DNA from: Chiloscyllium plagiosum | Taxonomy: Eukaryota | DNA: 64,000 nt | Direction of reading: 5' to 3' | Assembly: GCF_004010195.1 (NCBI RefSeq) | Contig: NC_057758.1 | Span: forward strand, 747,029-811,028 | Part shown: positions 995 through 60,209 of the stretch, piece by piece | How positions within the stretch are numbered: position 1 is the stretch's first letter | How the letters are laid out: each line of letters opens with the position of its first letter | Notes under the pieces: model-generated | Databases searched by the model: none | Seen by the model: the letters and a program-made list of their open reading frames with translations, nothing else | What the model was told of the DNA's origin: nothing | Made by a program: the position numbers and the translations under genes

Positions 995-3900
995 TAGAAC
1001 ATAGAACAGAGAATTGTACAGCACAGTACAGGCCCTTCGGCCCTCGATCTAATGCCGACCTGTGTAATTAATCTGATTCCCATCTAACCTACACCATTCT
1101 ATTATTAGCCATACGTATTTCCAATGCCCATATAAATGCCCTTAACGTCGGCGAGTCTACTAGTGTTTCAGGAAGTCCGTTCCTCACCTCTACTCCTCTC
1201 TGAGTACAGAAACTACCCAGGATATCTGTCCTAAATCTCCCACCACCCAATTTAAACATATTTCTCCTCGTGTTAGCTTTCATCATTCAAGGAAGAAGAC
1301 GCTTACTGCTCACCCTATCTAACCCTCAGATTATCTTATATGACTCGATTAAGTCCCCTTTCAACCTTCTTAGTTCCAATGAAAAGAACCTCAATTCCAA
1401 CAGCCTTGCCTCGTAAGACATTCCTTCCACACCGGGCAACATCCGAGTAAATCTCAGAACCCTTTCTAAAACTTCCACATACTTTCTGCAATGCAGAGAC
1501 CAGAACTGTATGCAATATGCCAGGTGCGACCTTACCAGTGTTTTGAAAAACTGAAGCATGACCTCGTGGCTATGAAACTCAATCCCCTTACCATTCAACG
1601 CCTACACACCATATCCCCTCTTAACCACCCTATCAACCTGAGTAGCAACATGCAGGGATTTATGCATCTGGACACCGAGATCCCTCTGTTCATTGACACT
1701 ATCAAGAACTGTGCCATTCGCACAGGACTCTGCATTCCTGTCACTTCATCAGAAATGAAATACCTCACACTACCTCCGCATTAAACACCATTTAGCATTT
1801 CTCAGCCCAACTCTGCATCTCATCTACGTCTCTCTGTAACCAACAAAGTCCTCCAGCACTATCAACAGTTCTGCGTATCTTCGTGCCCTCCACAAATTTA
1901 CTTACCCATTCTTCTACGCCCACCTCAGATCATTTATTAAAATGACAAACAGCAGAGCCCCAAAACCGATCCTTGCGGCACACCACCGGTAAGTGAGCTC
2001 CAGGATGAACATTTCGCAACAACCACCACACTCTGTCTTCTCTCATCTGGCCAATTTCTGATCCAAACCGCTAAATCACCTTCAATCCCGAAACTCCGTA
2101 TTTTATGCAACAGCCTTCCGTGTGGAACCTTATCAAAGGCCTTACTGAAGTCCATATATACCACATCAACTGCATTACCTTCATCCACCTGTTTTGTCAC
2201 CTGCTCGAAGAACTCAATAAGGTAGGTTAGGCACAACCTATCCTTCACAAAACCGTGTTGACTATCCCTAATCAAGTTATTCCTTTCCAGATTATTATAA
2301 ATCCGTTCTCTTATAACATTTTCCAACACTTTACCCACAACCGAAGTAAAGCTCACTGGCCTATAATTTGCAAGGTTATCCTGACTCACCTTCTTAAACA
2401 AGGAAACAACTTTTGCTATCCTCCAGTCTTCTGGTACTGATCCTGTCATCAATGATGACATAAAGCTCAAAACCAAAGGCTCTGCAATCACTGCCTTGGC
2501 TTCCCAGAGAATCCGGGGGTGAATCCCATACGGCCAAGGGGACTTATCCATTTTCAGATCTTCCAGAACGTCGAAAATCCCCTCTTTGTCAACCACAATC
2601 CCATCTGATCTAGTACCCGGTGTCTCCGTAATCTTACTAACGTTGCCCTTCATCAATGTGAATAGTGACAGAAAGTATTCAATAAACACTTCCCCTATGT
2701 CCTCGAATTCCACACACAACATCCTACGACTGTCTTTGATTGTCCCTAATCTTACTCCAGTCATTCTTTTATTCCTGATATACCTATATAAGGTCTTAGG
2801 GTTTTCCTTGATCCTGTCCACCAACAACGTCTCTTGTCCCTTCCTGGAACTTCTTTGTACAATCTTAAACTCTTTTCTTGCTAACTTATAACTCACAAGC
2901 TCCCTAACTGAGCCTTCACGCCTCATCCTCATATAAGATTTCTTATTTCTCTTGACAAGAAGTTCAACTTCTTCAGTAAACCTCTCTCGACAACTGCCGT
3001 CCTGCCTGATACATATATAGTTATCAAGGTCTCGCAGTAGCTCGTTCTTGAATAAGCTCCACATTTCTAGTGTGTCCATGCCCTGCAGTTTCCTTTCCCA
3101 TGCTATGCTTCCAAAATCGTATCATAATTTCCCCCATTTATACGTCTTTCCTTGTGTGAAATACATATCCCTGCACAATGTTACTGTAAATGAACCGAAT
3201 TGTGGTCACTATCGCCAAAGTGCTCACCTCCTTCTAAATCTAACACCTGACCAGGTACATTCCCCAGTACCAAATCCAAAATGACATCGCCGGTTGATGG
3301 CCTTTCTACATACTGTGACAGAAACCCTCCAGCACGTATTGAACAAACACTGACCCATCTAAACTACTTGAGCTATATTATTCCCAGTCAATATTGGGTG
3401 AGTTAAACTCCCCCATAACATCTTTCCTGTCACTATCGCTCCTGTCATCAATCATCTTTGCTATCCTTTCCTCTGCATTCCTGGAACAATTCGAAGGCCG
3501 ATAGAAAATTCGCAAAAGGGTGACCTCTCCTTTCCTGTTTCTAACCTCGGCTCAAATTACCTCAGTTGATAAGTCCTCAAATGTTATCTCAGCTGCTGTA
3601 ATACTACCTATTAATTAACAATGCCACTACCCGCCTCCGACCTTTTTCCACCTTCTGTGTTCTTACTGAAGCATCTAAAACCTGGAATCTGCAAAAACCA
3701 TTGCAGTTCCTTCACTTGTCGTGTCTCTGAAATGGCCACAACATCGAAATCCCACATACCAACCCATGCTGCAAGTTCACTCGCCTTTTTCCACATGCTC
3801 CTGGTATTGAAATATACACTATTCAAAATAACATCCTGTGCCCTCTCGCGAGCTTGTAAACTTATCCCTGACCTCACTACCCTCAACCTCCTATACACTG

Positions 3901-10010: not shown

Positions 10011-10057
10011 AGTGCGATATGACACAAGGACAACAAGTGATGATCAATGCAGCGAAT

Positions 10058-10063
10058 TTTATT
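10058..10063 (-). terminator. Polyadenylation signal AATAAA of the beta-defensin-like gene
   Basis: AATAAA 100 nt after the TGA, followed by a GT-rich tract (TTGTTGTCCTTGTGTC). Confidence 0.6.
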
Positions 10064-10163
10064 TGACTCATTCAGAAAACAGGGTGTCAGGAGTGCAGAA
10101 ACTGGGATGTCAGTAATTGGGCAGTGGGTAGTGGGAGGACACCACAGAGAGCATGTGTCAAGA

Positions 10164-10324
10164 TCAAAGACCCGTCTCGTCGAGGGTCACATCATACTTT
10201 TGGTAACGCCTTTTGCTGCAGCACTTCACTGATTTGATGCAGTTTGTAGAGCGCAACTCCGCGTTTTTCTGGAACAAGGTTATTCTGCAGGTGCCTCCAA
10301 GATCCCAGCAATCCTTGTGTTTAG
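10164..10324 (-). CDS. Beta-defensin-like mature-peptide exon (exon 2) with five of six cysteines
   Basis: Acceptor TTTGATGTTGTACAG|, phase 1. Translates (A)KHKDCWDLGGTCRITLFQKNAELRSTNCIKSVKCCSKRRYQKYDVTLDETGL*, giving C-x6-C-x3-[L]-x11-C-x5-CC with a GxC motif, a loop Glu and basic residues around the CC. Confidence 0.75.
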
Positions 10325-10489
10325 CTGTACAACATCAAATGCGAGTTCGTTCATGGCACTGTTACGGATTTGTGAGATTCAAAACGTGTTCCAATGACGT
10401 TTATTGAAGGGTTGGGGTTAGGAGATAGGAGATAGATAAGGTCGGGAGAATTAACATGAAGAATAGAACTGCATGCAGTGTTCTTGTGT

Positions 10490-10650
10490 GGAGCACTGTG
10501 AGGGATATGGAGAACATAATCATGGAAAGTATACCTAATATTATCTAACTCAGGGATATGGAGTTAGCAGCTGTGGACAGTAGCACTGGTGTGGTCAAAC
10601 TGAGGGAATCGGGACCGGAAATATACACGTTGTTCCAAGTTCTGTCTAAT
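10490..10650 (-). repeat. Short array of the ~50-bp CR1-derived tandem unit
   Basis: Reverse complement CAGTTTGACCACACCAGTGCTACTGTCCACAGCTGCTAACTCCATATCCCT resembles the unit at 18300-19295. Confidence 0.45.
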
Positions 10651-10994
10651 GGTGTATAGTTGGAAACAAAAATCGAATATATGCCAATACAAGTAATGAA
10701 GACTTTTATTGACAGAATTTAATTTAAGGAACGAATGGGAGAATGTGGATATCTCGCAGTGGAAATAGACTGGGGGTGATCAAAGACCAGAGAAGGGGAC
10801 AGCAGTGAGAGGACGGTTGTAAACGTGAAATAAGAATACTGGGATACGACCAGGAGATGCAGTTTGTAGATGCGAAATACGAGGGGACTAAACATAGATA
10901 GTTATAAGAAACACATTGTGTCTGCTCCATTGAAAAGTAAAACGTCGTTGCATTTTCGAACTAGTCAAGAATCAGGTCGAAAGCATTCTGTTTA

Positions 10995-13915
10995 CATAGA
11001 ACATAGAACACAGAACAGTACAGCACAGAACAGGCCCTTCAGCCTACGATGTTGTGCCGACCATTGATCCTCATGTATGCACCCTCAAATTTCTGTAACT
11101 AAACGCATGTCCAGTAGTCTCTTAAATATCCCCAATGACCTTGCTTCCACAACTGCTGCTGGCAACGCATTCCGTGCTCTCACAACTCTCTGTGTAAAGA
11201 ACCCGCCTCTGACATCCCCTCTATACTTTCCTCCAACCAGCTTAAAACTATGACCCCTCGTGTTAGCCATTTCTGCCTTGGGAAATAGTCTCTGGCAATC
11301 GACTCTATCTGTGCCTCTCATTTTCTTGTATACATCAATTAGGTCCCCTCTCCTCCTCCTTTTCTCCAATGAAAAAAGTCCGAGCTCAGTCAACCTCTCT
11401 TCATAAAATAAGCCCTCCAGTCCAGGCAGCATCCTGGTAAACATCCTCTGAACCTTCTCCAAATCATCCACATCTTTCCTATAATATGGCGACCAGAACT
11501 GGACGCAGTATTCCTAGTGCGGTCTAACCAAAGTTTTATAGAGCTGCAACAAGATCTCACGACTCTTAAAATCAAAGCCCCTGTTAATGAAAGCCAAAAC
11601 ACCATATGCTTTGTTAACAACCCTGTCCACTTGGGTGGCCATTTTAAGGAATTTATGTACCTGCACACCAAGATCCCTCTGTTCCTCCACGCTGCGAAGA
11701 ATACTATCCTTAATCCTGTAATCAGCTTTCAAATTCGACCTTCCAAAATGCATCACCTCGCATTTATCCCGGTTGAAATCCATCTGCCACCTCTCAGCCC
11801 ATCTCTGCATCCTGTCAATGTCCCGCTGCAGCCAACAACCGCCCTCTATGCTATCAACGACACCTTTGTGTCGTCTGCAATCCTGCTGACCCATCCTTCA
11901 ATCCCCTCATCCAATAAAAATTACAAACAGTAGAGGATCAAGGGCAGAGCCATATGGAACACCACTCATTACTGACTTCAGGCAGAATATGTTCCTTCTA
12001 CTACCACTCGCTGTCTTCTGTTGGCCAGCCAATTCTGTATCCAGGCAGCTAAGTTCCCCTGCATCCCATTCCTCATGAACTTTTGAATGAGCTTACCATG
12101 GGAAACCATTCTGAAGTAGGACTTATGCCCGAAACGTCGATTCTCCTTCTACTGTGATGCTGCCTGACGTGCTGCGCTTTTCCAGCAACACATTTTTAAG
12201 TTAAAACCTTGTCAAATGCCTTACTGAAGTTCAATATACACCACATCCACAGCTCGACCCTCATCAACATTTCTAGTCACATCCTCAAAGAACTAGATAA
12301 GGTTTGTGAGGCATGACCTGCCCCTCACAAAGCCGTATTGACTGCATTTAATCAAGCCATGCTCTTCCAGATGGTCATAAATCCTATCCCTCAGAATCCT
12401 TTCTTACACCTCGCAGATGACAGACGTGAGACTGAGTGGTCTGCAATTGCCTTGGATTTCCCTATTTCCTTTTTTGAAGAGAGGAATTGCATTTGCCTCT
12501 CTCCAGACCTCAGGTACGACTCCAGTGGAGAATGAGGATGCAAAGATCTTCGCAAGTGGGGAAGAAATTGCATTTCTCTTTTCCCAAAGCAGCCGAGGAC
12601 AAATCTAGTCCGGGCTTGGCGACTTGTCAATCGTAATGTTTGACAAAATTTTCAGCACATCAGCTTCCTCTATCTCTATCCATTCCAGCATGCACTTCTT
12701 CAAAGGTTTCATTCACTACAAAATTCGTTTCTTTCCGAACGACAGAAGCAAACTCCTCTTTTAGGGCTTCCCCTAACTCCTCAGACTGACAAACAAGTTC
12801 CCTATGCTATCGCTGATCGGCCCTACTCTTTCTTTGACCATTCTCTTATTCCTCACATAAGTGTAAATTACCTTTGTGTTCTCCCTCATCCGTTCTGCCA
12901 AGCCTTTCTCGTGCCCCCTCCTGGCTCTCCTCAGACCATTTTTGAGTTCCTTTCTCGCCTGCCTCTAATCCTCTAGAGCTGAGCTTGACCCTAGCTTCCT
13001 CCACCTTATGTAAGCTACCTTCTTCCTTTTGACGAGGAGATCCATCGCTCTCGTCATCCAAGGTTCCTTTACCTTACCCCTTCTTGCCTGTCTCAGAGGG
13101 ACATATTTATTCATCACTCGCAACGACTGTTCCTTAAACAGTCTCCACATGTCTATAGTGCATTTACCATGGAACAGTTGCTCCCATTCTATGTTTCCTA
13201 ACTCATGTCTAATCGCATCATACTTTTCTCTTCCCCAATTAGATATCCTCCGATTTTGCCAAATCCTCGCCCTTTCCAAAGCTATGTAGAATGTGAGGCA
13301 GTTGTAGCCACTATCACCAAAATGCTCTCCCACCACAAGATCTGATACCTGCCCCGGCTCGTTTCCGAGCACCAAGTCGAGAATGGCCTGTCCCCTCGTC
13401 GGCCTGTCAATGTACTGAGTTAGGAAACTCACCTGAACACACCTTACAAAAACAGCTCCATTCAAATCTTCTGCTCGAAGGAGGTTCCCATCAACATTGG
13501 GAAAGTTAACGTCATCCATTACAACAACCCTACTACGTTCACACTTTTCCAAATCTGCCGAGCTATGCTTTCTTCCATCTCCCTGCTGCTGTTGGGGGCC
13601 TGTAGTAAACCCCTAACGAGGTGACTGCTCCCTTGCTATTCCTAATTTCCACCCATACTGACTTGGTAGGCAAATCTTCCACGAAAATGGAAGCTTCTGT
13701 AGCTGTGATACCCTCTGTGATTAGTAGTGTTACCCCCTTTTAAATGCTCTAAACCCTGGAACATCCAGCAACTATTCCTGGCCCTGAGAAACCTATGTCT
13801 CTGTTATGGCCACATCATAGCACTAGGTACTGATCCATTTTGCAAGTTCATCGCTTTCATTCCTGATACTCCTTGTGTTAAAGCAAACACACTTTAACTG
13901 ATCCCTCGGTTCCTT
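10995..13915 (-). mobile_element. CR1/HER1 LINE (APE, RT, 3' tail) inside the defensin-like intron
   Basis: ORFs 12965-13552 (APE: LDLVLGNEPGQVSDLVVGEHFGDS), 11514-11894 and 11085-11471 (ORF2 C-terminus). The ACATAGA tail is at ~10995. Confidence 0.92.
12108..12200 (+). mobile_element. Short Penelope-derived insertion with a decayed hammerhead motif, nested in the LINE
   Basis: CTGAAGTAGGACTTATGCCCGAAACGTCGATT interrupts the CR1 RT between AAACC repeats. Confidence 0.65.
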
Positions 13916-14017
13916 CCGAACAGCTATTTCGATTATGGAAACAAGATTCACTTGAAGACATTGAACAGATTCTCTGTCGATGTCCGTACTGACCTCTGAT
14001 AAACATGTACTTTCATT

Positions 14018-14081
14018 CGTCGGTATTAAATGATTCCACCAGCACCAAGGATGCAAGGGTCAAGACCCGTGTTTTACCCAT
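14018..14081 (-). CDS. Signal-peptide exon (exon 1) of the beta-defensin-like gene; donor non-canonical
   Basis: 64 nt (21 codons + 1), MGKTRVLTLASLVLVESFNTD+G. It joins exon 2 in frame to give ...TDA|KHKDC and lies ~50 nt downstream of a TATA box. The expected GT is absent (G|AATGAAAGT). Confidence 0.55.
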
Positions 14082-14130
14082 TTCCCACTGAGATCCTCGG
14101 AGGAGCAGTGAGGTGACTGCAGCACACTCA

Positions 14131-14157
14131 TTATATATGACCTTTGATGATTCATCA
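14131..14157 (-). promoter_or_regulatory. TATA box (TATATAA, 14131-14137) and adjacent palindrome TGATGATTCATCA (AP-1-like core)
   Basis: Position ~50 nt upstream of the ATG of the signal exon. Confidence 0.5.
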
Positions 14158-14887
14158 CACGCACAGGCACGATGTTGATTCGGCTTAGTCATGTGAATTG
14201 AACGGTTCACTGAATTAGACGAATGGAAACTGGAACAAAAAAAGGATCTTAAACCTATGATTTGTAAACATATCAATAAAGAATCTGACCTCTGAAATTA
14301 GTGAATTCACGAAGGTTTAATGCCGAGTCTTCACTGTGTTTGAGCTAAGAACCATTCGGCCCATCATGCCTCTGCTGTTCTCACAGGGTTTTAAGGACAT
14401 AGACGGCATAAATTATTCTATTTTACCCATTGCTACCCATAACCATTCTTTTCTTTCAGATTATTAATGCAATCGTCATGTTGAAAGTCACTGGCCTGTC
14501 AGGAAATGCATTCCAGATCACAATAACTCCCTGTGCGAAGAGAAATTATCCTCATGCCATATCGCGTTCTAATGGGAATTATCTTCATTCTGCTTTTATT
14601 GCAAACAAATTTTCATCATCTCTCTCACCGAATAATGGAAGAAGAGCTGTAAGGTTTCCCTGCTGCCTGGGAGCCAATATACATCAACTGTCCCGTATCA
14701 TCAAATACATGCTGACAACATTTTAACAGGGGGTCATTTTGTGCGCAGGACACTAAGACACCCTAAGGCTGGGAACAGTAGACTCTGAATCTTTCTTTTT
14801 TTTTGTTTCCTTCTCTGTTTGTCTCTCGCTCTGCATTACTTTCGCTCTTGCCTACTTTCTATCCATCTACATTTTTTTCCTCTGCAA

Positions 14888-22254: not shown

Positions 22255-24720
22255 AATATGGAACATAGAACAGGCCTGTACAGGTTCTTCGGCCCACGAT
22301 GTTGTAACTAACATTTACCTTAGTCAGAGACCAACCTAATCTACACACCTCTCAATGTACTGCTGTCCATTTGCTTGTCAAACAGTCTCTTAAATGTGAA
22401 TAATGTCTCTGACGTCACTACCATTGCTTGCCGTCCATTCCACATATCGACCAGACTCTACATAAAGGACCTACCTTTGACATCTCCCCTAAACCTTCCT
22501 CCAAACACTTTAAAATTATGACCCCTCATGACAGACATTTCAGCCCTGGGGAAATGTTTCTGGCTTTCTACTCTACATAGGCCTCGCATTACCTTGTTCA
22601 TCTCTATCAAATCACCTCCCTTCCTTCTTCTCTCCATTGTGAACAGCATGAGCTCACTCTCCCACTCTTCAGAAGACAGTCATCCAATCCAGGCAGCATT
22701 CTGTGACATCTCCTATGCACCCACTCTAAAGCATCTACATACTTTCTATAATGAGTTATCCATAACTGGAAACAATATTCCAAATGTGTTCGAACCAGGG
22801 ACTTTCAGAACTTTAACAAAACTTCATAGAATATAAAATAACGAACATTACAGCACAGTGCACGTTATTTGGCCCTTGATGATGCCCCAACCTGTGAAAC
22901 CAATTCGAAGACCATGTAACCCACATCCATTCCACTTTCATCCAAAAGTCTGTCCAATGACCATTGAAATGCACTTAAAGTTGATGAGTCTACTACTGTT
23001 GCAGGTAATTCGTTCCACGCCCCTAATATTCTCTGAGTAAATAGGTACTTAATCTATCACACCTCCATTGAAAGCTACGACCCTTGTGCTAACCATCACC
23101 ATTCGAAGAAAATAGCTCTGACTGTCCACCTTCTGATTATCTCATATGTCTTCATTAAGTAACTTCTCAACCGCCTTCGCTCTGATGCAAACAGCCTCAA
23201 TTCCATCTGCATTTCCACATCAGACCTTCCAACTTTCCCAGGCAACATCCTAGAAAATCTTCTCTGAATTCTTTGCAATGCTTCCACATGCTTCCTGTCA
23301 TGCCATGACCAGAACTCAATGCAATACGCCAAGCATGACAGTACCATAATTTTGTTAAGCTGCGCTATGACGTCATGGTTCCAAAACCCAATCTCTCTAC
23401 TAATACAAAGAGAATACGCCATATGCCATCATAACAACCCTCTCAACCTGGATGGCAACGTTCAAGGATCGATATATCTGGACACTGAAATATCTATCGC
23501 CCTCTGTAACCGATAACATAATTCGGAACAACCCACAACTGTACCAACCTCAGTGTCATCCACAACTTTACTAACCCATCCTTCTACGCCCTTACTCAGA
23601 TCACTTATAAACATGACAAACAGCAGTGGACCCAAAACAAATCTTTGCTGTTCGTCACTAATAATGAAACTCCAGGACGAACACTTCCTGTCAACAATCA
23701 CTCTTTGTCCGCTTACAGCGAGCCAATTTCTGATCCAAACAGCTAAATCACCCTCAATCCCATGACTCCATATTTTGTGCAATCGCCTACCGCAGGGAAC
23801 CTTATCAAACGTCTTACTGAAATTCAAAAACATCATACCAGCCGCTTTACCGTAATCCACCTCTTTGGACAACTTCTCGAAAAACTCGATAAGATTTGTG
23901 AGGCACGAACTTCACCTCAGAAAATCGTGTTCATTATTCCTCATCAACTCATTCATTTCTAGATGATTACAAATCATATAATCTTGTCCAACACTTTAGC
24001 CACAATTGAAGTAAGGCTCGCTGGCCAATAATTACTTGGATTGTCTCTACTCTCCTTCTTGAAGAAGGGAACAGCATTTGTTACTCTCGAGTCTTCTGGC
24101 ACTATTCCTGTAAACAATGATGACATAAAGATCAAAGCTCGACAATCTTGTCCCTGTCTTCGCAGAGAATCCGAACATTAGTCCCATTCGGTCAAGTGGA
24201 CTTCAGCATTTTCATACTTTACAGAATTGCTGGCAACTCCTCATTGTGTATGTCTATCCCATCTGCTGTAGGAGCCTGTGCATCAGCATTGCCCTCGACA
24301 ATTTTGTGTTTCTCTAGTGTGAATACTGACAAAAATATTCATTCAGCGCTTCCCCTATCTCCTCTAACACCGCACACAACTTCCCACTACCATCCTTGAT
24401 TAGATCTAAACTTACACTAGTCATTCTTTTCTTCATGATATACTTATGAGAAGCCTCATGGTCATCCTTGATCCTATCCACCATTGAATTCTAAAGTCTG
24501 GTCCTGGCTCTTCTTAGCTCTCTTTTTCGGTTTTTCCTGGCTAACTTGTCACTCTCAAGCGAACTAACTTAACCATCACATTTCATCCTAACATAACTCT
24601 TCTTCTTCCTCTTGACAAGAGATTCAGTTTCTTCAGTAAATAAGTGTTCCTGCACTCGACAGCTTCTTCACTCCCTGAGAGGTACATCCTTAACAATGAT
24701 CCGCAGTAGCTTTTCCTTGA
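22255..24720 (-). mobile_element. Two adjacent CR1/HER1 LINE fragments
   Basis: 3' tails at ~22260 and ~22830; ORF 23462-23872 has the RT core (FSKTFDKVP, VLGPLLFVMFISDL, VVDDTE). Confidence 0.85.
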
Positions 24721-33214: not shown

Positions 33215-33714
33215 NNNNNNNNNNNNNNNNNNNNNNNNNNNNNNNNNNNNNNNNNNNNNNNNNNNNNNNNNNNNNNNNNNNNNNNNNNNNNNNNNNNNNN
33301 NNNNNNNNNNNNNNNNNNNNNNNNNNNNNNNNNNNNNNNNNNNNNNNNNNNNNNNNNNNNNNNNNNNNNNNNNNNNNNNNNNNNNNNNNNNNNNNNNNNN
33401 NNNNNNNNNNNNNNNNNNNNNNNNNNNNNNNNNNNNNNNNNNNNNNNNNNNNNNNNNNNNNNNNNNNNNNNNNNNNNNNNNNNNNNNNNNNNNNNNNNNN
33501 NNNNNNNNNNNNNNNNNNNNNNNNNNNNNNNNNNNNNNNNNNNNNNNNNNNNNNNNNNNNNNNNNNNNNNNNNNNNNNNNNNNNNNNNNNNNNNNNNNNN
33601 NNNNNNNNNNNNNNNNNNNNNNNNNNNNNNNNNNNNNNNNNNNNNNNNNNNNNNNNNNNNNNNNNNNNNNNNNNNNNNNNNNNNNNNNNNNNNNNNNNNN
33701 NNNNNNNNNNNNNN
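33215..33714. other. Assembly gap (500 N)
   Basis: Run of N. Confidence 1.
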
Positions 33715-38739: not shown

Positions 38740-40065
38740 TTCAGATAAATGGGGTATGGATGCTAAGGCAGTTGCTTTCTCCTCTTGAAGAATGTGGCAG
38801 GTGAGAGACATGACACATGTCTCCGCTGGCTACATCTGCAGGAAGTGCACCCAACTCCAGCTCCTTGAAAACCGTGTTAGAGAATTGGAGCTGGAGATGG
38901 GGTAATTGAGAGGAGTTACCGGCAGTTGGTCACTCCTGAGGCTCAGGATAAGGATGGATGGGTTACAGTCAGGGGGAGGAAAGGGGACAGACAGACAGTG
39001 CAGGGATCCCCTGTGGACATTCCCCTCAGCAATAAGTATGTCGTTTTGGATACTGCTGGGGAGGATGACCTACCATAGGAAAGCCATAGTCGTCAGTTCT
39101 CTGGCACTGAGCATGACACTGTGGCACAGAAGTGAAGGAGGCCAAACAGAAAAGTGCTGGTGGCAGGAAACTCGATAGTTAGGAAAAGTGACAGGAGATT
39201 TTGTGGTCAGGATCGGGATTCCCAGAAGGTTTGTTGCCTCCCTGGTGCCAGGGTCCGGGACGTCTCCGATCGGGTGCATCGGATTCTGAAAGGGGAGGGC
39301 GAACAGCCAGAAATTGTGTTACATATTGGCACCAATGATATAGCCAGGAAAAGGATCGAGGGTATAAAAAGTGATTTCAGGGAGTTAGGGTGGAAGCTGC
39401 AGAGCAGGACGAACAGAGTAGTGTTCTCGGGTTTACTACCGGTGCCACGAGATAGGGAGGTGAGGAACAGGGAGCGGGCGCATCTTAACACGTGGCTGCG
39501 CATCTGCTATAGGAGGGAGGGATTCAAATATGTAGATAATTAGGATGTCTTCTGGGGAAGGTGGGACCTGTACATGAAGGACGGGCTGCACCTGAACTGG
39601 AAAGGGACCAAGGTCCTGGGTGGAAGTTTTGCTCGAGTTGTTCAGGAGGGGGGGGGGGGGTTGGGAACCTAAGCTAAATACCGGAGGGGAGAGTTGATGG
39701 AGATGAGGCAATAGCAAGAGGTAACGCAACCAGTGGGAAGGAAGTTCCTGGAAAAGAACCAAGGGATCAGTTAAAGTGTGTTTGCTTTAATGCACGAAGT
39801 AGGAGAAAGTGAGGACTGCAGATGCTGGAGATCAGAGCTGAAAAATGTGTTGCTGGAAAAGCGCAGCATTTCAGGCAGCATCCAAGGAGCCGGAGAATCG
39901 ACGTTTCGCGCATAAGGCCTTCTTCAGGAATGCAAGAAGTATCAGGAATAAAAGTGATGAGCTGAGAGCATGGATCAGTACCTGGTGCTATGATGTTGTG
40001 GCCATAACAGAGACTTGGGTTTCTCAGGATCCCTGTCCTGTGCTGTACTGTTCTATGTTCTATGT
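38740..40065 (+). mobile_element. Internally deleted CR1/HER1 LINE inserted in the satellite
   Basis: ORF1 (Cys motif ICRKCTQLQLL; esterase LVAGNSIVR..CCLPGARV..HIGTND), APE start to ~40030, then directly the GTTCTAT tail. Confidence 0.85.
39802..39928 (-). mobile_element. Short Penelope-derived element with hammerhead-like motif and 13-bp target-site duplication
   Basis: Flanked by AATGCACGAAGTA (39789-39801) and AATGCAAGAAGTA (39929-39941); minus strand CTGAAGAAGGCCTTATGCGCGAAACGTC. Confidence 0.75.
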
Positions 40066-46809: not shown

Positions 46810-49800
46810 CTGAAACATGGAACCTCTTGTATCCCAGCAGATTCACTGGGTCCCCAGATTAAAAAGAAAACTAAGCCGGATGTGATAAAACACTGAACTG
46901 AGAGAACTGGGCACTCCCAATTCAATGTACTAGTAGCTAATCTGTTGATCATAATCAAAGTGGCCCACCTCGACAAATCAGAAAATCTGTCTTTTACAAG
47001 CCTCTTGAAAAAGATCATGGGCAACAAAACCTTTGTAAAGGAGCAGCATCGTCACAGAATATTGCCAGGAAATAAGTCCTAATATATGGAATTCACGGTG
47101 AGATGAAAAATGCCCGATTATGCAGAGTGAATGTGGAGTGGTGGAAACCATACGAGAAATGGTGATAGCGTACTGCAGAAACCCTCAGTTACAGGAATCC
47201 AATTTTTCCTTGGTAATGATGTAGCTGAGTTATAGGTAGGAGTGCTGCCTACTGTGTTTGACAAAAATCAGTGGAAAATCAGTCTTACTGGAAGTATATC
47301 TTGGGATTTTTCGTGATTGTGTGAGTAGAAGATCATAAAATCACCAGTTGAAACAGGAAGAGAAATCGAAGACTGTAAGTAACGAATTTGAAGAAGAGTT
47401 GTCAGCAACAATTTTAATCGAATGGCAGAGACAAAAAAAAGTAACAAGAGGACAAAGTGGATTTTTTAAATTCAAGAAAAATTAACTGAGTTTCAACAGA
47501 GTGGTGAAAACCTGAAGCAATTATGTCGGGAAACATACAAAGAAGAATGTTCTGAGCGTATTCCTGTATGTTACTATTTTAACAATGATGTTTTGAAGTG
47601 GAAATGGAGACCATCACATAATCACGCAGACGAGAAATCGGCTGAAGTTCATCAAATTGCATTGCCAGTGGCTTACAGAATGAAAGTGTTTCGGGCAGCC
47701 CATAAATTACCAGTAGCTGATCACTTGGGAGGTAGAAAAACTCAAGCGAAAATACAAAAATATTTTTCTTGGCCCCAAATGTATAAGGACGTGCAAGTAA
47801 TTTCCCAAAATGTCACAGATGTCACGTAATTGAAAACCTCAGGCAAGAATATAAGCAGAACGTTTCACACTCATGCTTGCATTTGAGGGATCTTCTACAG
47901 GAGAATTAATTGATTGCGTAGGACCCGTATAGAAAACAAAAATTCAGAATCGCAATGTGTTCACAGTAATGGATGTCTTCACCACATTTCCAGAGGCCAT
48001 TCAGTGACACAGTATCACAGCGAAAAGGACTGCAGCAGATCAAGTCAAGTCTTTCACCAGAGTCGGAATACACACAGAGATACAGCCAGTTTAAGGCTCA
48101 CATTTTACAAAAAAATTATTCAGGGAATTATATATAGCTTCGGAATAAGTTAATTAAGTCCACTTCATACATTCAGCAATTACAGCGGGCGTTGGAAATG
48201 TGACTTCAAACGTAAAGAGCAGGTTAAGAGCTGAAAGCCGAGAATAACCAGATGATCAGGATAAAGGAGTTGTGTTTCTACGATGCATCAAGTGAATTAA
48301 CCAAATTCAGTCTATTTGTATTAGTTTTGGCGCAGGAAGTGACATGATCACTAAAATTAATTAAGCACGCAGTTGAATTATGCTGGTCATTTCATACCTG
48401 GCAGGTATTTGTGAAAAAGCAGTAATAAATTCGCACCTTTGATAATAATTCCTGCATTTGATGAGAATTTTACAAGAGCAAAAATTGACTGACAGAGCGT
48501 GAGGTCTGCAGATGTTGGAGGTCGGAGTGGAAAGGTCTGGCGCTAAAAATGCATGGTAGGTCAGGCAGCATCCAAAGATCAGGAGAATCATTGTTTTAGG
48601 CACAAATTCGTCATAAGCTTGGATGCTGCCAGACTTATTGCGTTTTTCCAGCGTCACAGTTTTCATCTCTTAACTGAATGCATAGAACAAAAATTAGAAT
48701 CAATCTGTGCTGACCATAATGGGTATGTCGACAACATTTCCAATAAATAATAGAACAGCTAATTTTTGCATCAAAATTATTCAGAATATTTTTGTATAGT
48801 TTCGGAATAAATTAATTCCAATCTGCTGCAGTCCATCCAGAATCACATGGGTAGAGAGAAATGTAGCATCAGACATAAAGGCAACGTTCAAAGCTTATAG
48901 TCAAGACTATCTAAATGCTAAGTATAAATGAAGTCTGTCTGTACTTTTTCATAACAATCAGTACTGCAACGAATGAAATGACCACCTTCAATCCATTTGC
49001 ATTAATGTTTTTGGGCATGAAATGAGAGGACATTTCAACGTCATTAAGGAGAAATTGGTAAACCAGAATCCAGAGACCACATAATACGAAAACGTGTCAG
49101 ATTTTAGGAAGCGATTAAATATAGATGGATAATTGTTTCGGCAGCATCTAAAATACCACAGCAAACAATAAATTCGGACGCTGGGAAGAAGCCGAAAACT
49201 CGCAATTTTGCTACTGAGATAAGGTTTTCATGCTACTGGCAGTGATAGATGAATCTTTAAAATCAATGTTTAGAGGTACTTCTTAAGTCGAAATGACATT
49301 GAGTGGTAAACTATTTGACAAGAACTCTGGACAGAAAGGACTCTCATGAAATGCGTCATGTGAATATACTGATAAAGTATTTTGACTGGGAAGGAAACCA
49401 AGAGGAGACTGTGCTATTACTTGCAGCACAGAGTGAAGAACTAATTTCAAAGGATTCTGAATTGAACATTCTTCAAATTAGCTTGTACAATGAGGACGTT
49501 GTCAACAATTCGGTGCAATGATTAGGTTCCTTCTGGAGGAAAATCGAAATGGACAGAAAAAAAAAGTTCTGGCAATCTCATGGGGAGATATATGGAAATA
49601 AGCTTGGAAATACCAACCTAATTGTGCATCTTGAAGATGTAGGAAATGGTGTTTCAATAGACAGCATCCTTAAAGGCTTAACCCACTAAAGTTGGCACAA
49701 GTTCAAAAAGTGTTTCAATGCATGCTCCAAGATTACATAATTGAAGTGAGTTGCAGTCACTGGAGCACACCCAGAGTAATTGTCCCAACATCATGTGGTG

Positions 49801-59264: not shown

Positions 59265-60163
59265 TTAATTTAACATTTTTGTCAATAGAGTAATTGCATA
59301 TTTGAACACATCCTTCACCTGATTCCTGAACTTAGTCAGTGTCACAACATAAATACATATATTTGTGCAGTGACTTGTGAGCTGGCAGATGTATCCAATT
59401 TCCCGGACAAAATAATGTAGAAACATAATCTTCTGTCCCAATAGCCATGTCCGGTTCCATATTAAATACAACATAATGATTGCCCATGATAGTACAAAGT
59501 TGGCTGAAATGAGAAACAGCAAGATTATGGATTTTCTTCGACTCTCCATTTTTGAGTCTGTGACGTTGTTCTCCTTACTGAATGACTTTAGACGTCTGCG
59601 GGCTCTGTTGGCCATTAGGATATGCCTGACACATAAAGCATTGAACTACACAGTCAGAAGAATTGCCAAGCATGGTGTGAGAAGATGATGACTGATTTCG
59701 AGTTTTCCCCAGAACTTAGATGTTTTAAAACTCCATCTTATCTCACAAAACCAAGGAACATTCTTTAGCCGATACTGACCTGTCAACATAAAATAGCACA
59801 AGATATTCTTTAAACAGCTCAGTATTGCTATTATTCCCAATACGACAGATGCAATTTTCTCGTTGCAATATTTATGTTTCAGTTCTTGGCAACAGATAGC
59901 CACAAATCGATCAAAGGTGAAAGCAACAGTGAACCATACAGAACAGTCTGTCGCTGCATGAACAAAGATGGCATGGATGTTGCATACTGGGAGGGACTTC
60001 ACAAACTGAAATTCTTTCTTATAAACAATTGGAATATGTCTCAGTATCAGGTCAAGAATGTTGACCAGTAGATCCATCACAGCCATGTCCACCAGATATC
60101 GGATAACACATTTGGATAGACCGCACTGACAACGAGAGAGGATTGCAATCGCCAGTGTGTTAA
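59265..60163 (-). pseudogene. GPR139/GPR142-like class A GPCR, main coding exon, with an in-frame TAG
   Basis: Acceptor TTGCTCTTTCTCACAG| phase 1. Motifs VNTLAIAILSRCQCGLSKC, DCSVWFTVAFTFDRFVAICCQ, ESRRKSIILLFLIS and CTNICIYVVT. ORFs 59646-60200 and 59265-59615 are in the same frame, separated only by TAG at 59646-59648. The first exon was not found in the window. Confidence 0.85.
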
Positions 60164-60209
60164 CTGTGAGAAAGAGCAATAAAACCTGGAAATTATACAT
60201 TAGTTACAG

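Follow-up and report, generated by a model that had tools for sequence, protein, structure and literature searches.

On the minus strand of a 64,000-nucleotide (nt) stretch of the genome of the shark Chiloscyllium plagiosum (assembly GCF_004010195.1, contig NC_057758.1, positions 747,029 to 811,028; hereafter the window), a locus at about 10 to 14 kb had been described in an initial annotation as a spliced beta-defensin-like gene encoding a secreted precursor of 74 aa. Judged from its comparison with intact copies elsewhere in the same genome, this locus is probably an unprocessed pseudogene of a shark beta-defensin gene family. It retains an intron and a TATA box and is homologous to an intact gene, its exon 1 frame is interrupted by a TGA at codon 23, and the third of the six conserved cysteines (Cys3) has been lost.

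Gene structure and lesions of the window locus

The elements that the initial annotation had placed on the minus strand were largely recovered (Table 1): the TATA box, the succession of signal exon, phase-1 intron and cysteine exon, and the AATAAA with its GT-rich element all stand, though the exon 1 frame carries the TGA. The open reading frame (ORF) that begins at the ATG is signal-peptide-like (MGKTRVLTLASLVLVESFNTD), as had been proposed, but the exon cannot be the 64 nt long unit first drawn, for its boundary at 14018/14017 is followed by AA and not by GT. When all GT and GC dinucleotides of the first 130 nt were tabulated, two usable phase-1 donors were seen, at exon lengths of 4 and 88 nt; a third phase-1 GT, at an exon length of 115 nt, has a donor score of -11.1. 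The donor 4 nt past the ATG would leave no signal peptide and the 88-nt donor comes after the TGA, and no phase-1 donor that both precedes the TGA and retains the signal peptide was found in this table. The 88-nt donor, GAG/GTCAGT, corresponds to the donors of the paralogs described below, the exon 1 lengths being 88, 91 and 94 nt, all 3n+1. The frame of the 88-nt exon translates to MGKTRVLTLASLVLVESFNTDE, then the stop, then KYMFIR, and has a phase-compatible ATG at codon 26. Since the exon is still 3n+1 in length, a point nonsense change, and not a frameshift, would be the simplest history of the lesion. With this TGA upstream of the donor, canonical splicing and translation cannot yield a secreted defensin, and the 74-aa joined product could not be made in this way: its proposed donor is AA, and the real donor lies after the in-frame stop.

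The second exon had been delimited correctly, with an AG acceptor and 161 nt read in phase 1 to a TGA. It is an open frame of 53 codons that ends in a 17-residue tail after the CC pair. Its cysteines number five, in the arrangement C-x6-C-x15-C-x5-CC, and not the six first reported for the mature domain, and the sequence does not show the six-cysteine pattern of vertebrate beta-defensins, taken approximately as C-x(4-8)-C-x(3-5)-C-x(9-13)-C-x(4-7)-CC. The x6/x3/x11/x5 spacing given earlier was a miscount in which a Leu was taken for a Cys; the true spacing of the family is x6/x4/x10/x5. Ungapped MAFFT alignments of the window exon 2 with five six-cysteine exons were used to assign the Cys3 column, which is occupied by Cys in all five of these and by Phe17 in the window. 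Translation of the window in all six frames yields the relaxed five-cysteine pattern a single time, and one of 60 mononucleotide shuffles also contained it. The pyrimidine tract of the acceptor is weak, with 55% C/T in the 20 nt upstream as against 65-90% in three paralogs.

Whether the two lesions might be errors of the assembly was addressed with three sequencing runs, X1, X2 and X4, all from one study, which are DNA because their contigs are colinear through the intron and the flanks; the runs bear on the absence of error at the lesions and not on their fixation in the species. Exon 1 and its donor are covered by contigs of X1 (13921-14200), X2 (13878-14696) and X4 (13878-14229), and exon 2 by contigs of X1 (10167-10562) and X2 (10030-10668). 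Relative to the assembly, these contigs carry differences at 13975, 14170, 14221 and 10172, and none at the TGA (X1, X2 and X4) or at the TTC of Phe17 (X1 and X2). Since both codons are unchanged in runs that differ at nearby single-nucleotide polymorphisms, assembly error is unlikely. The difference at 10172, C>G on the plus strand in run X2, changes a Gly to Arg in the C-terminal tail of exon 2.

The intron, which had been described as 3.7 kb long and mostly filled by a CR1 long interspersed nuclear element (LINE), does have about this length (3,669 nt) and consists mostly of a high-copy repeat, but the CR1 class was not confirmed. The repeat contains frameshifted endonuclease-like and reverse transcriptase-like ORFs, and among seven of its ORF pieces the only Pfam match was a sub-threshold RVT_1 tail (E 0.019). 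DNA-run depth reaches 1e4-1e5 in the bins from 10828 to 14019, as against about 5-20 in the unique flanks, which points to a very high copy number; the unique DNA contigs stop at about 11020 and start again at about 13878. The 3′ tail of the repeat is a hairpin followed by (GTTCTAT)n, the latter identified by TRF, and this combination we take to be CR1-like.

Intact paralogs and the surroundings of the locus

Relatives of the locus were sought in the 3.56-Gb assembly of the same genome. A six-frame search with the beta-defensin profile PF00711 gave 28 matches at E<=10, and among the 10 loci returned five carry open six-cysteine exons. As peptides, three of these scored 25.8 (L004), 24.0 (L007) and 23.4 (L011) bits, with a cut-off of 21. 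Exon 2 of L004 covers profile positions 2-36 of 36, and all four PDB sequence matches of L004 are beta-defensins. The profile PF13841 gave five matches in the genome, none of them over the cut-off and none with the six-cysteine pattern. No close protein was found for the ORFs of L004 and L007 by a word search of a collection of 5.8 billion clusters, over lengths of 0.55-1.75 times the query.

A scan of the 10 kb upstream of L004 yielded one candidate ATG-ORF with a hydrophobic core and a phase-1 GT donor. This exon, at locus L019, reads MVKALILLLASLMLTEAFGPDFEKELWVSVG and has the donor GAG/GTGAGA; together with L004 it forms an apparently intact gene with an exon 1 of 94 nt, an intron of 5,058 nt and an exon 2 with six cysteines spaced x6/x4/x10/x5. 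A second gene type, L018/L006, has a 91-nt phase-1 exon 1 (MKSLLLLLIVLVLVEPITADGESRPRFFLL, donor G/GTTAGT) about 1.3 kb upstream of an exon 2 whose core is CLVQGGICRRSLCLPHEIPSSGFCEHGGFCC. Three near-identical or similar copies of this exon 2 lie on small unplaced contigs (L007, L009 and L011) and could be haplotigs or tandem copies. The exon of L028 has six cysteines in the x6/x4/x10/x5 spacing of the family, a phase-1 acceptor and the poly(A) block of the window; among the intact relatives it seems to stand nearest to the window pseudogene, and its exon 1 was not located. A second pseudogene, L027, has an in-frame TAG after Cys2, a Tyr in place of Cys5 and, as in the window, a tail that runs on well past the CC position; a search of the 10 kb upstream did not reveal its exon 1. 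Three relics of exon 1 and its 5′ untranslated region (UTR) are near-identical to one another, with CTG at the position of the ATG and a deletion in the hydrophobic core.

The window locus could be tied to these genes at each of its parts. In exon 1, 11 of 21 residues are identical between the window and L019 peptides, a number that none of 200,000 shuffles reached (maximum 10), and the two peptides are reciprocal best non-self tblastn matches (E 0.006; search spaces, the 64-kb window for one peptide and a 10-kb locus for the other). Upstream of exon 1, TGACTAAGCC, GTGTGATGA and the TATA box are common to the window and L019 promoters and stand in the same order; the TATA boxes of the paralogs are CATATAA and TTATAAA, at distances similar to that in the window. 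We take TGACTAAGCC and GTGTGATGA(A/T)T to resemble ARE/AP-1-like and C/EBP-ATF composite sites, and the shared motifs may mark a common inducible regulation of the family. At the other end of the locus, a DNA search with window exon 2 and the 3′UTR identified L027 with 67% identity over 355 nt (E 1.3e-19) and matched the poly(A) block of L028; this block is identical to that of the window at 23 of 24 positions in L027 and 86% identical in L028. The window and L027 are 60% identical over the cysteine core, with 66% for the intron and 71% for the 3′UTR, values from which no inference on selection is possible. At all four loci, the window and its paralogs, the phase-1 acceptor is placed four or five codons before Cys1. 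Peptide searches of the genome recovered less: window exon 2 found itself and one chance-level match (E 5.8) and L019 exon 1 found only itself, with a filter that misses divergent paralogs such as those found by the DNA and Pfam searches.

Compared with the L019/L004 gene as a whole, the window locus has the same kind of TATA promoter with the same two upstream motifs, an exon 1 of similar length (88 vs 94 nt) and the same phase, an intron on the same kilobase scale, the same distance of 15 residues from C2 to C4, and x5 before the CC pair. The L019/L004 gene differs in having six cysteines, a frame open from ATG to stop, an acceptor tract with 90% pyrimidines and the PF00711 score given above, whereas the window copy has the TGA, Phe at Cys3, the weak acceptor, the 17-residue tail and no Pfam match. 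Since an intact gene whose cysteine exon passes PF00711 is paralogous to the window locus, membership of the beta-defensin family, as originally proposed, is upheld by paralogy and exon layout, and the homology to the paralogs rules out a chance origin of the five-cysteine pattern. On these sequence grounds the locus is a true beta-defensin relative, with the link running through the paralogs and the direct similarity being weak.

That direct similarity was assessed in several ways. Neither the exon 1 nor the exon 2 peptide of the window had a Pfam match at E<=10, and both fell short of the curated cut-off of the beta-defensin profile; this negative carries little weight because the intact six-cysteine peptide of L028 is likewise unmatched. 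In the PDB the only sequence match of the window peptide at E<=10 was human beta-defensin 106, at a non-significant E of 0.83. No word-sharing protein was found for the window peptide in the collection of 5.8 billion clusters (lengths 0.55-1.75 times the query), and phmmer against 1.84 billion representatives gave no significant homolog. The sole phmmer match, a 568-aa Sel1-repeat protein aligned through five repeats, was judged spurious. A single-sequence AlphaFold2 (AF2) model was uninformative, with a predicted local distance difference test (pLDDT) score of 41. With a five-row alignment, whose rows are themselves defensin-like and may steer the model, AF2 gave a helix and three strands at a mean pLDDT of 59. 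Foldseek ranked beta-defensins in all of places 1-12 for this model, but its best E was 0.26 (target-normalised TM 0.77; root-mean-square deviation 2.1 Å over 36 columns). The predicted fold is thus consistent with that of beta-defensins, though the similarity is weak.

Table 1. Features of the window locus and of related loci in the genome. Unprefixed positions refer to the window; prefixed positions refer to the locus named.
Feature	Position	Strand	Remarks
Upstream motif TGACTAAGCC	14182..14191	-	Candidate site only; also in promoter of intact paralog L019
Upstream motif GTGTGATGA	14152..14160	-	Also in promoter of intact paralog L019
TATA box TATATAA	14137-14131	-	56 nt upstream of ATG
Start codon ATG	14081	-	
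Exon 1, coding part	13994..14081	-	88 nt, phase 1; predicted signal peptide and short propiece
In-frame TGA, codon 23	14015-14013	-	Disabling lesion; upstream of sole usable donor
Donor GT of GAG/GTCAGT	13992..13993	-	Top donor score in first 130 nt
Intron	10325..13993	-	3,669 nt, phase 1
Degenerate LINE-like retroelement	~11003..13878	-	Approximate bounds; ~2.9 kb; same orientation as gene
Acceptor AG, tgttgtacAG/CT	10326-10325	-	Phase 1, four codons before Cys1
Exon 2, coding part	10324-10164	-	161 nt, phase 1; stop TGA at 10166-10164
TTC (Phe17) in Cys3 column	10274-10272	-	Cys in 5/5 aligned six-Cys exons; TGC in L027
3′UTR	10040..10163	-	AATAAA at 10063-10058
GT-rich stretch	~10030-9990	-	Downstream of AATAAA
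Open six-Cys exons (PF00711 search)	L004 on C101976; L006 on C49 at 5.71 Mb; L007, L009, L011 on small contigs		
Intact gene L019/L004	L019:5875-5968 + L004:1495-1614; C101976 ~16.7-22.0 kb	-	Apparently intact, two exons
Intact gene L018/L006	L018:8216-8306, exon 2 from L018:9637; C49 ~5.712-5.714 Mb	+	Second gene type
Intact six-Cys exon L028	L028:1157-1275; C60097	+	Reads FFSDCMSLGATCKQRPCDNSETTLNGICAGNKYCCWKS
Second pseudogene L027	L027:1573-1730; C39 ~23.9996 Mb	+	Same subfamily as window copy
Exon 1/5′UTR relics	L023:635-731, L024:809-905, L025:1195-1272		76-78% DNA identity to window exon 1 and promoter

When a local profile was run over the window and 92 kb of further loci, the 64-kb window and the 10 kb next to its start yielded no second defensin-like exon. 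The remainder of the window consists mostly of retroelement debris and one ORF similar to G protein-coupled receptors (GPCRs). The latter is a 185-aa open frame at 59649-60203 on the minus strand, which matches positions 2-162 of 260 of the rhodopsin-family seven-transmembrane profile PF00001 (E 1.2e-10) and is either a single exon of a GPCR gene or a shortened copy of one. Retroelement debris was identified at 39136-39540 (+), 47470-47826 (+), 1940-3121 (-) and 23465-23911 (-), and comprises an OSK/GDSL-esterase-like ORF, an integrase zinc-binding domain and two RVT_1 ORFs. The 500 N at 33215-33714 are an assembly gap.

Competing readings of the locus

As an unprocessed pseudogene, the locus would descend from a two-exon gene with a TATA promoter, an exon 1 encoding a signal peptide and short propiece, a phase-1 intron, and an exon 2 encoding a six-cysteine defensin domain that would have been secreted and held by three disulfides. 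Translation from the ATG would now end at the TGA of codon 23, before the donor is reached. Since Phe stands in place of Cys3, Cys6 would have no partner even in a read-through product, and the C3-C6 disulfide cannot form in the window peptide. In the present sequence the acceptor pyrimidine tract is also degraded, and most of the intron is occupied by a LINE-like element. The function presumably rests with intact relatives at other places in the genome.

Several observations weigh against this reading. Exon 2 is open over its 53 codons, keeps five of six cysteines and has no indel relative to L027 over 161 nt; with decay this slight, a recent or polymorphic inactivation is indistinguishable from an old one. 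Since neither the promoter nor the donor, acceptor or poly(A) signal has been lost, the locus may be transcribed; a single-cell RNA run (X6) had no reads over the whole 8-kb stretch and hence provides no test of transcription. The lack of a Pfam match and of a significant phmmer homolog for the window peptide belongs here also, and the comparisons are confined to paralogs of one genome.

If the locus were a working five-cysteine gene spliced from 14018 to 10324, as the initial annotation implied, the joined frame would indeed be open, and the signal-like N-terminus, TATA box, AG acceptor and AATAAA are all in place. A five-cysteine defensin relative, mouse Defr1, reportedly works as a covalent dimer. 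Such a gene is nevertheless very improbable here: neither GT nor GC stands at 14018/14017, the best-scoring and paralog-equivalent donor is 24 nt further on, past the TGA, and in the intact paralogs the donors come after 91 and 94 nt. If a hydrophobic ATG-ORF and a cysteine-rich ORF had come to lie together by chance in repeat-rich DNA, with no defensin kinship at all, this would explain why the window peptide has no Pfam match, no homolog in two large protein searches and an uninformative single-sequence model. This explanation is scarcely credible and is refuted by the paralogs, which are independent for exon 1, for the promoter and for exon 2 with the 3′UTR and which occur in the same order and with the same intron phase; the rarity of the cysteine pattern among shuffled sequences speaks against it as well.

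That the locus is still transcribed and has a residual or new role is unlikely. It might then give rise to a non-secreted peptide initiated at the Met of codon 26 or to a regulatory RNA, or it might be a null allele that coexists in the population with intact alleles. The intact promoter motifs, splice sites and poly(A) signal, the open exon 2 and the phase-compatible ATG are in favour of this reading, as is the small number of DNA runs, all from a single study. A product started at codon 26 would, however, have no signal peptide and so could not be a secreted, disulfide-bonded defensin, the TGA is present in all three DNA runs that cover the site, and Cys3 is lost and the acceptor tract weak besides. 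Taken together, the findings favour an unprocessed pseudogene as the probable identity of the locus.

Comparison with known defensin genes and the shark family

Mammalian beta-defensins (DEFB106, PDB 2lwl; hBD-1 and hBD-2) resemble the window locus in having two coding exons, with the cysteine domain wholly in the last, a GxC motif before Cys2 and a terminal CC pair. They also agree in the phase-1 intron, which lies immediately 5′ of the cysteine domain and is described in PMC7203481 as common to big defensins and beta-defensins. The similarity of the window copy to the mammalian proteins is non-significant at the level of both sequence (E 0.83) and fold (best E 0.26, from a low-confidence model), and in the window Cys3 is missing and the frame interrupted. 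Teleost beta-defensins are alike in being small secreted precursors with a six-cysteine domain, and in belonging to fishes. According to PMC8231796, however, a teleost gene is made up of three exons separated by two short introns, and exons 2 and 3 each encode part of the mature peptide, whereas mammalian genes have two exons; a hypothesis of a two-exon ancestor is cited there. In the shark genes examined here, a single intron is present and the cysteine domain lies wholly within one exon. The match to teleost beta-defensins proposed in the initial annotation therefore fails, the layout described in that source being different and the agreement in spacing having rested on the miscounted cysteine. 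Two coding exons and a single phase-1 intron are seen in L019, in L018 and in the window pseudogene; L028 shows only the phase-1 acceptor.

In fast-evolving families of antimicrobial peptides, birth-and-death evolution leaves some copies that carry nonsense changes or lack cysteines. The window copy and the L027 copy on C39 are alike in this respect to beta-defensin pseudogenes in vertebrate clusters, but the window locus, unlike those, stands alone. In itself the window locus is ordinary: families of immune peptides that evolve by birth and death routinely leave such copies behind. It is unfit for antimicrobial-peptide mining because the 74-aa product cannot be made.

The intact relatives carry the wider interest. 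The genome contains at least three intact types of exon 2, on C101976 (L004/L019), on C49 at 5.71 Mb (L006/L018) and on C60097 (L028), and as dead members the window copy, the C39 copy and several exon 1 relics. The balance tilts slightly towards these genes being an undescribed and unannotated family of beta-defensins in cartilaginous fishes. No paper describing a cartilaginous-fish beta-defensin was found by a literature search that was thin on subscription fish-immunology journals, where a prior description is possible. In the available part of a 2019 review (PMC6795676), the antimicrobial peptides of cartilaginous fishes comprise only transferrin, squalamine and kenojeninin, and in that of PMC10707392 the word defensin appears only in a reference to carp. 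The suggestion that the locus might mark an under-described antimicrobial family holds in so far as no describing paper was found, but it rests on the intact paralogs elsewhere and not on the window locus.

In their layout, the shark genes described here would fit the two-exon-ancestor hypothesis. If the layout were true across sharks, rays and chimaeras, this outgroup would support the two-exon layout as ancestral and the three-exon layout of teleosts and birds as derived. For comparisons of gene structure and promoter within the beta-defensin family, the intact paralogs offer a point of reference from cartilaginous fishes.

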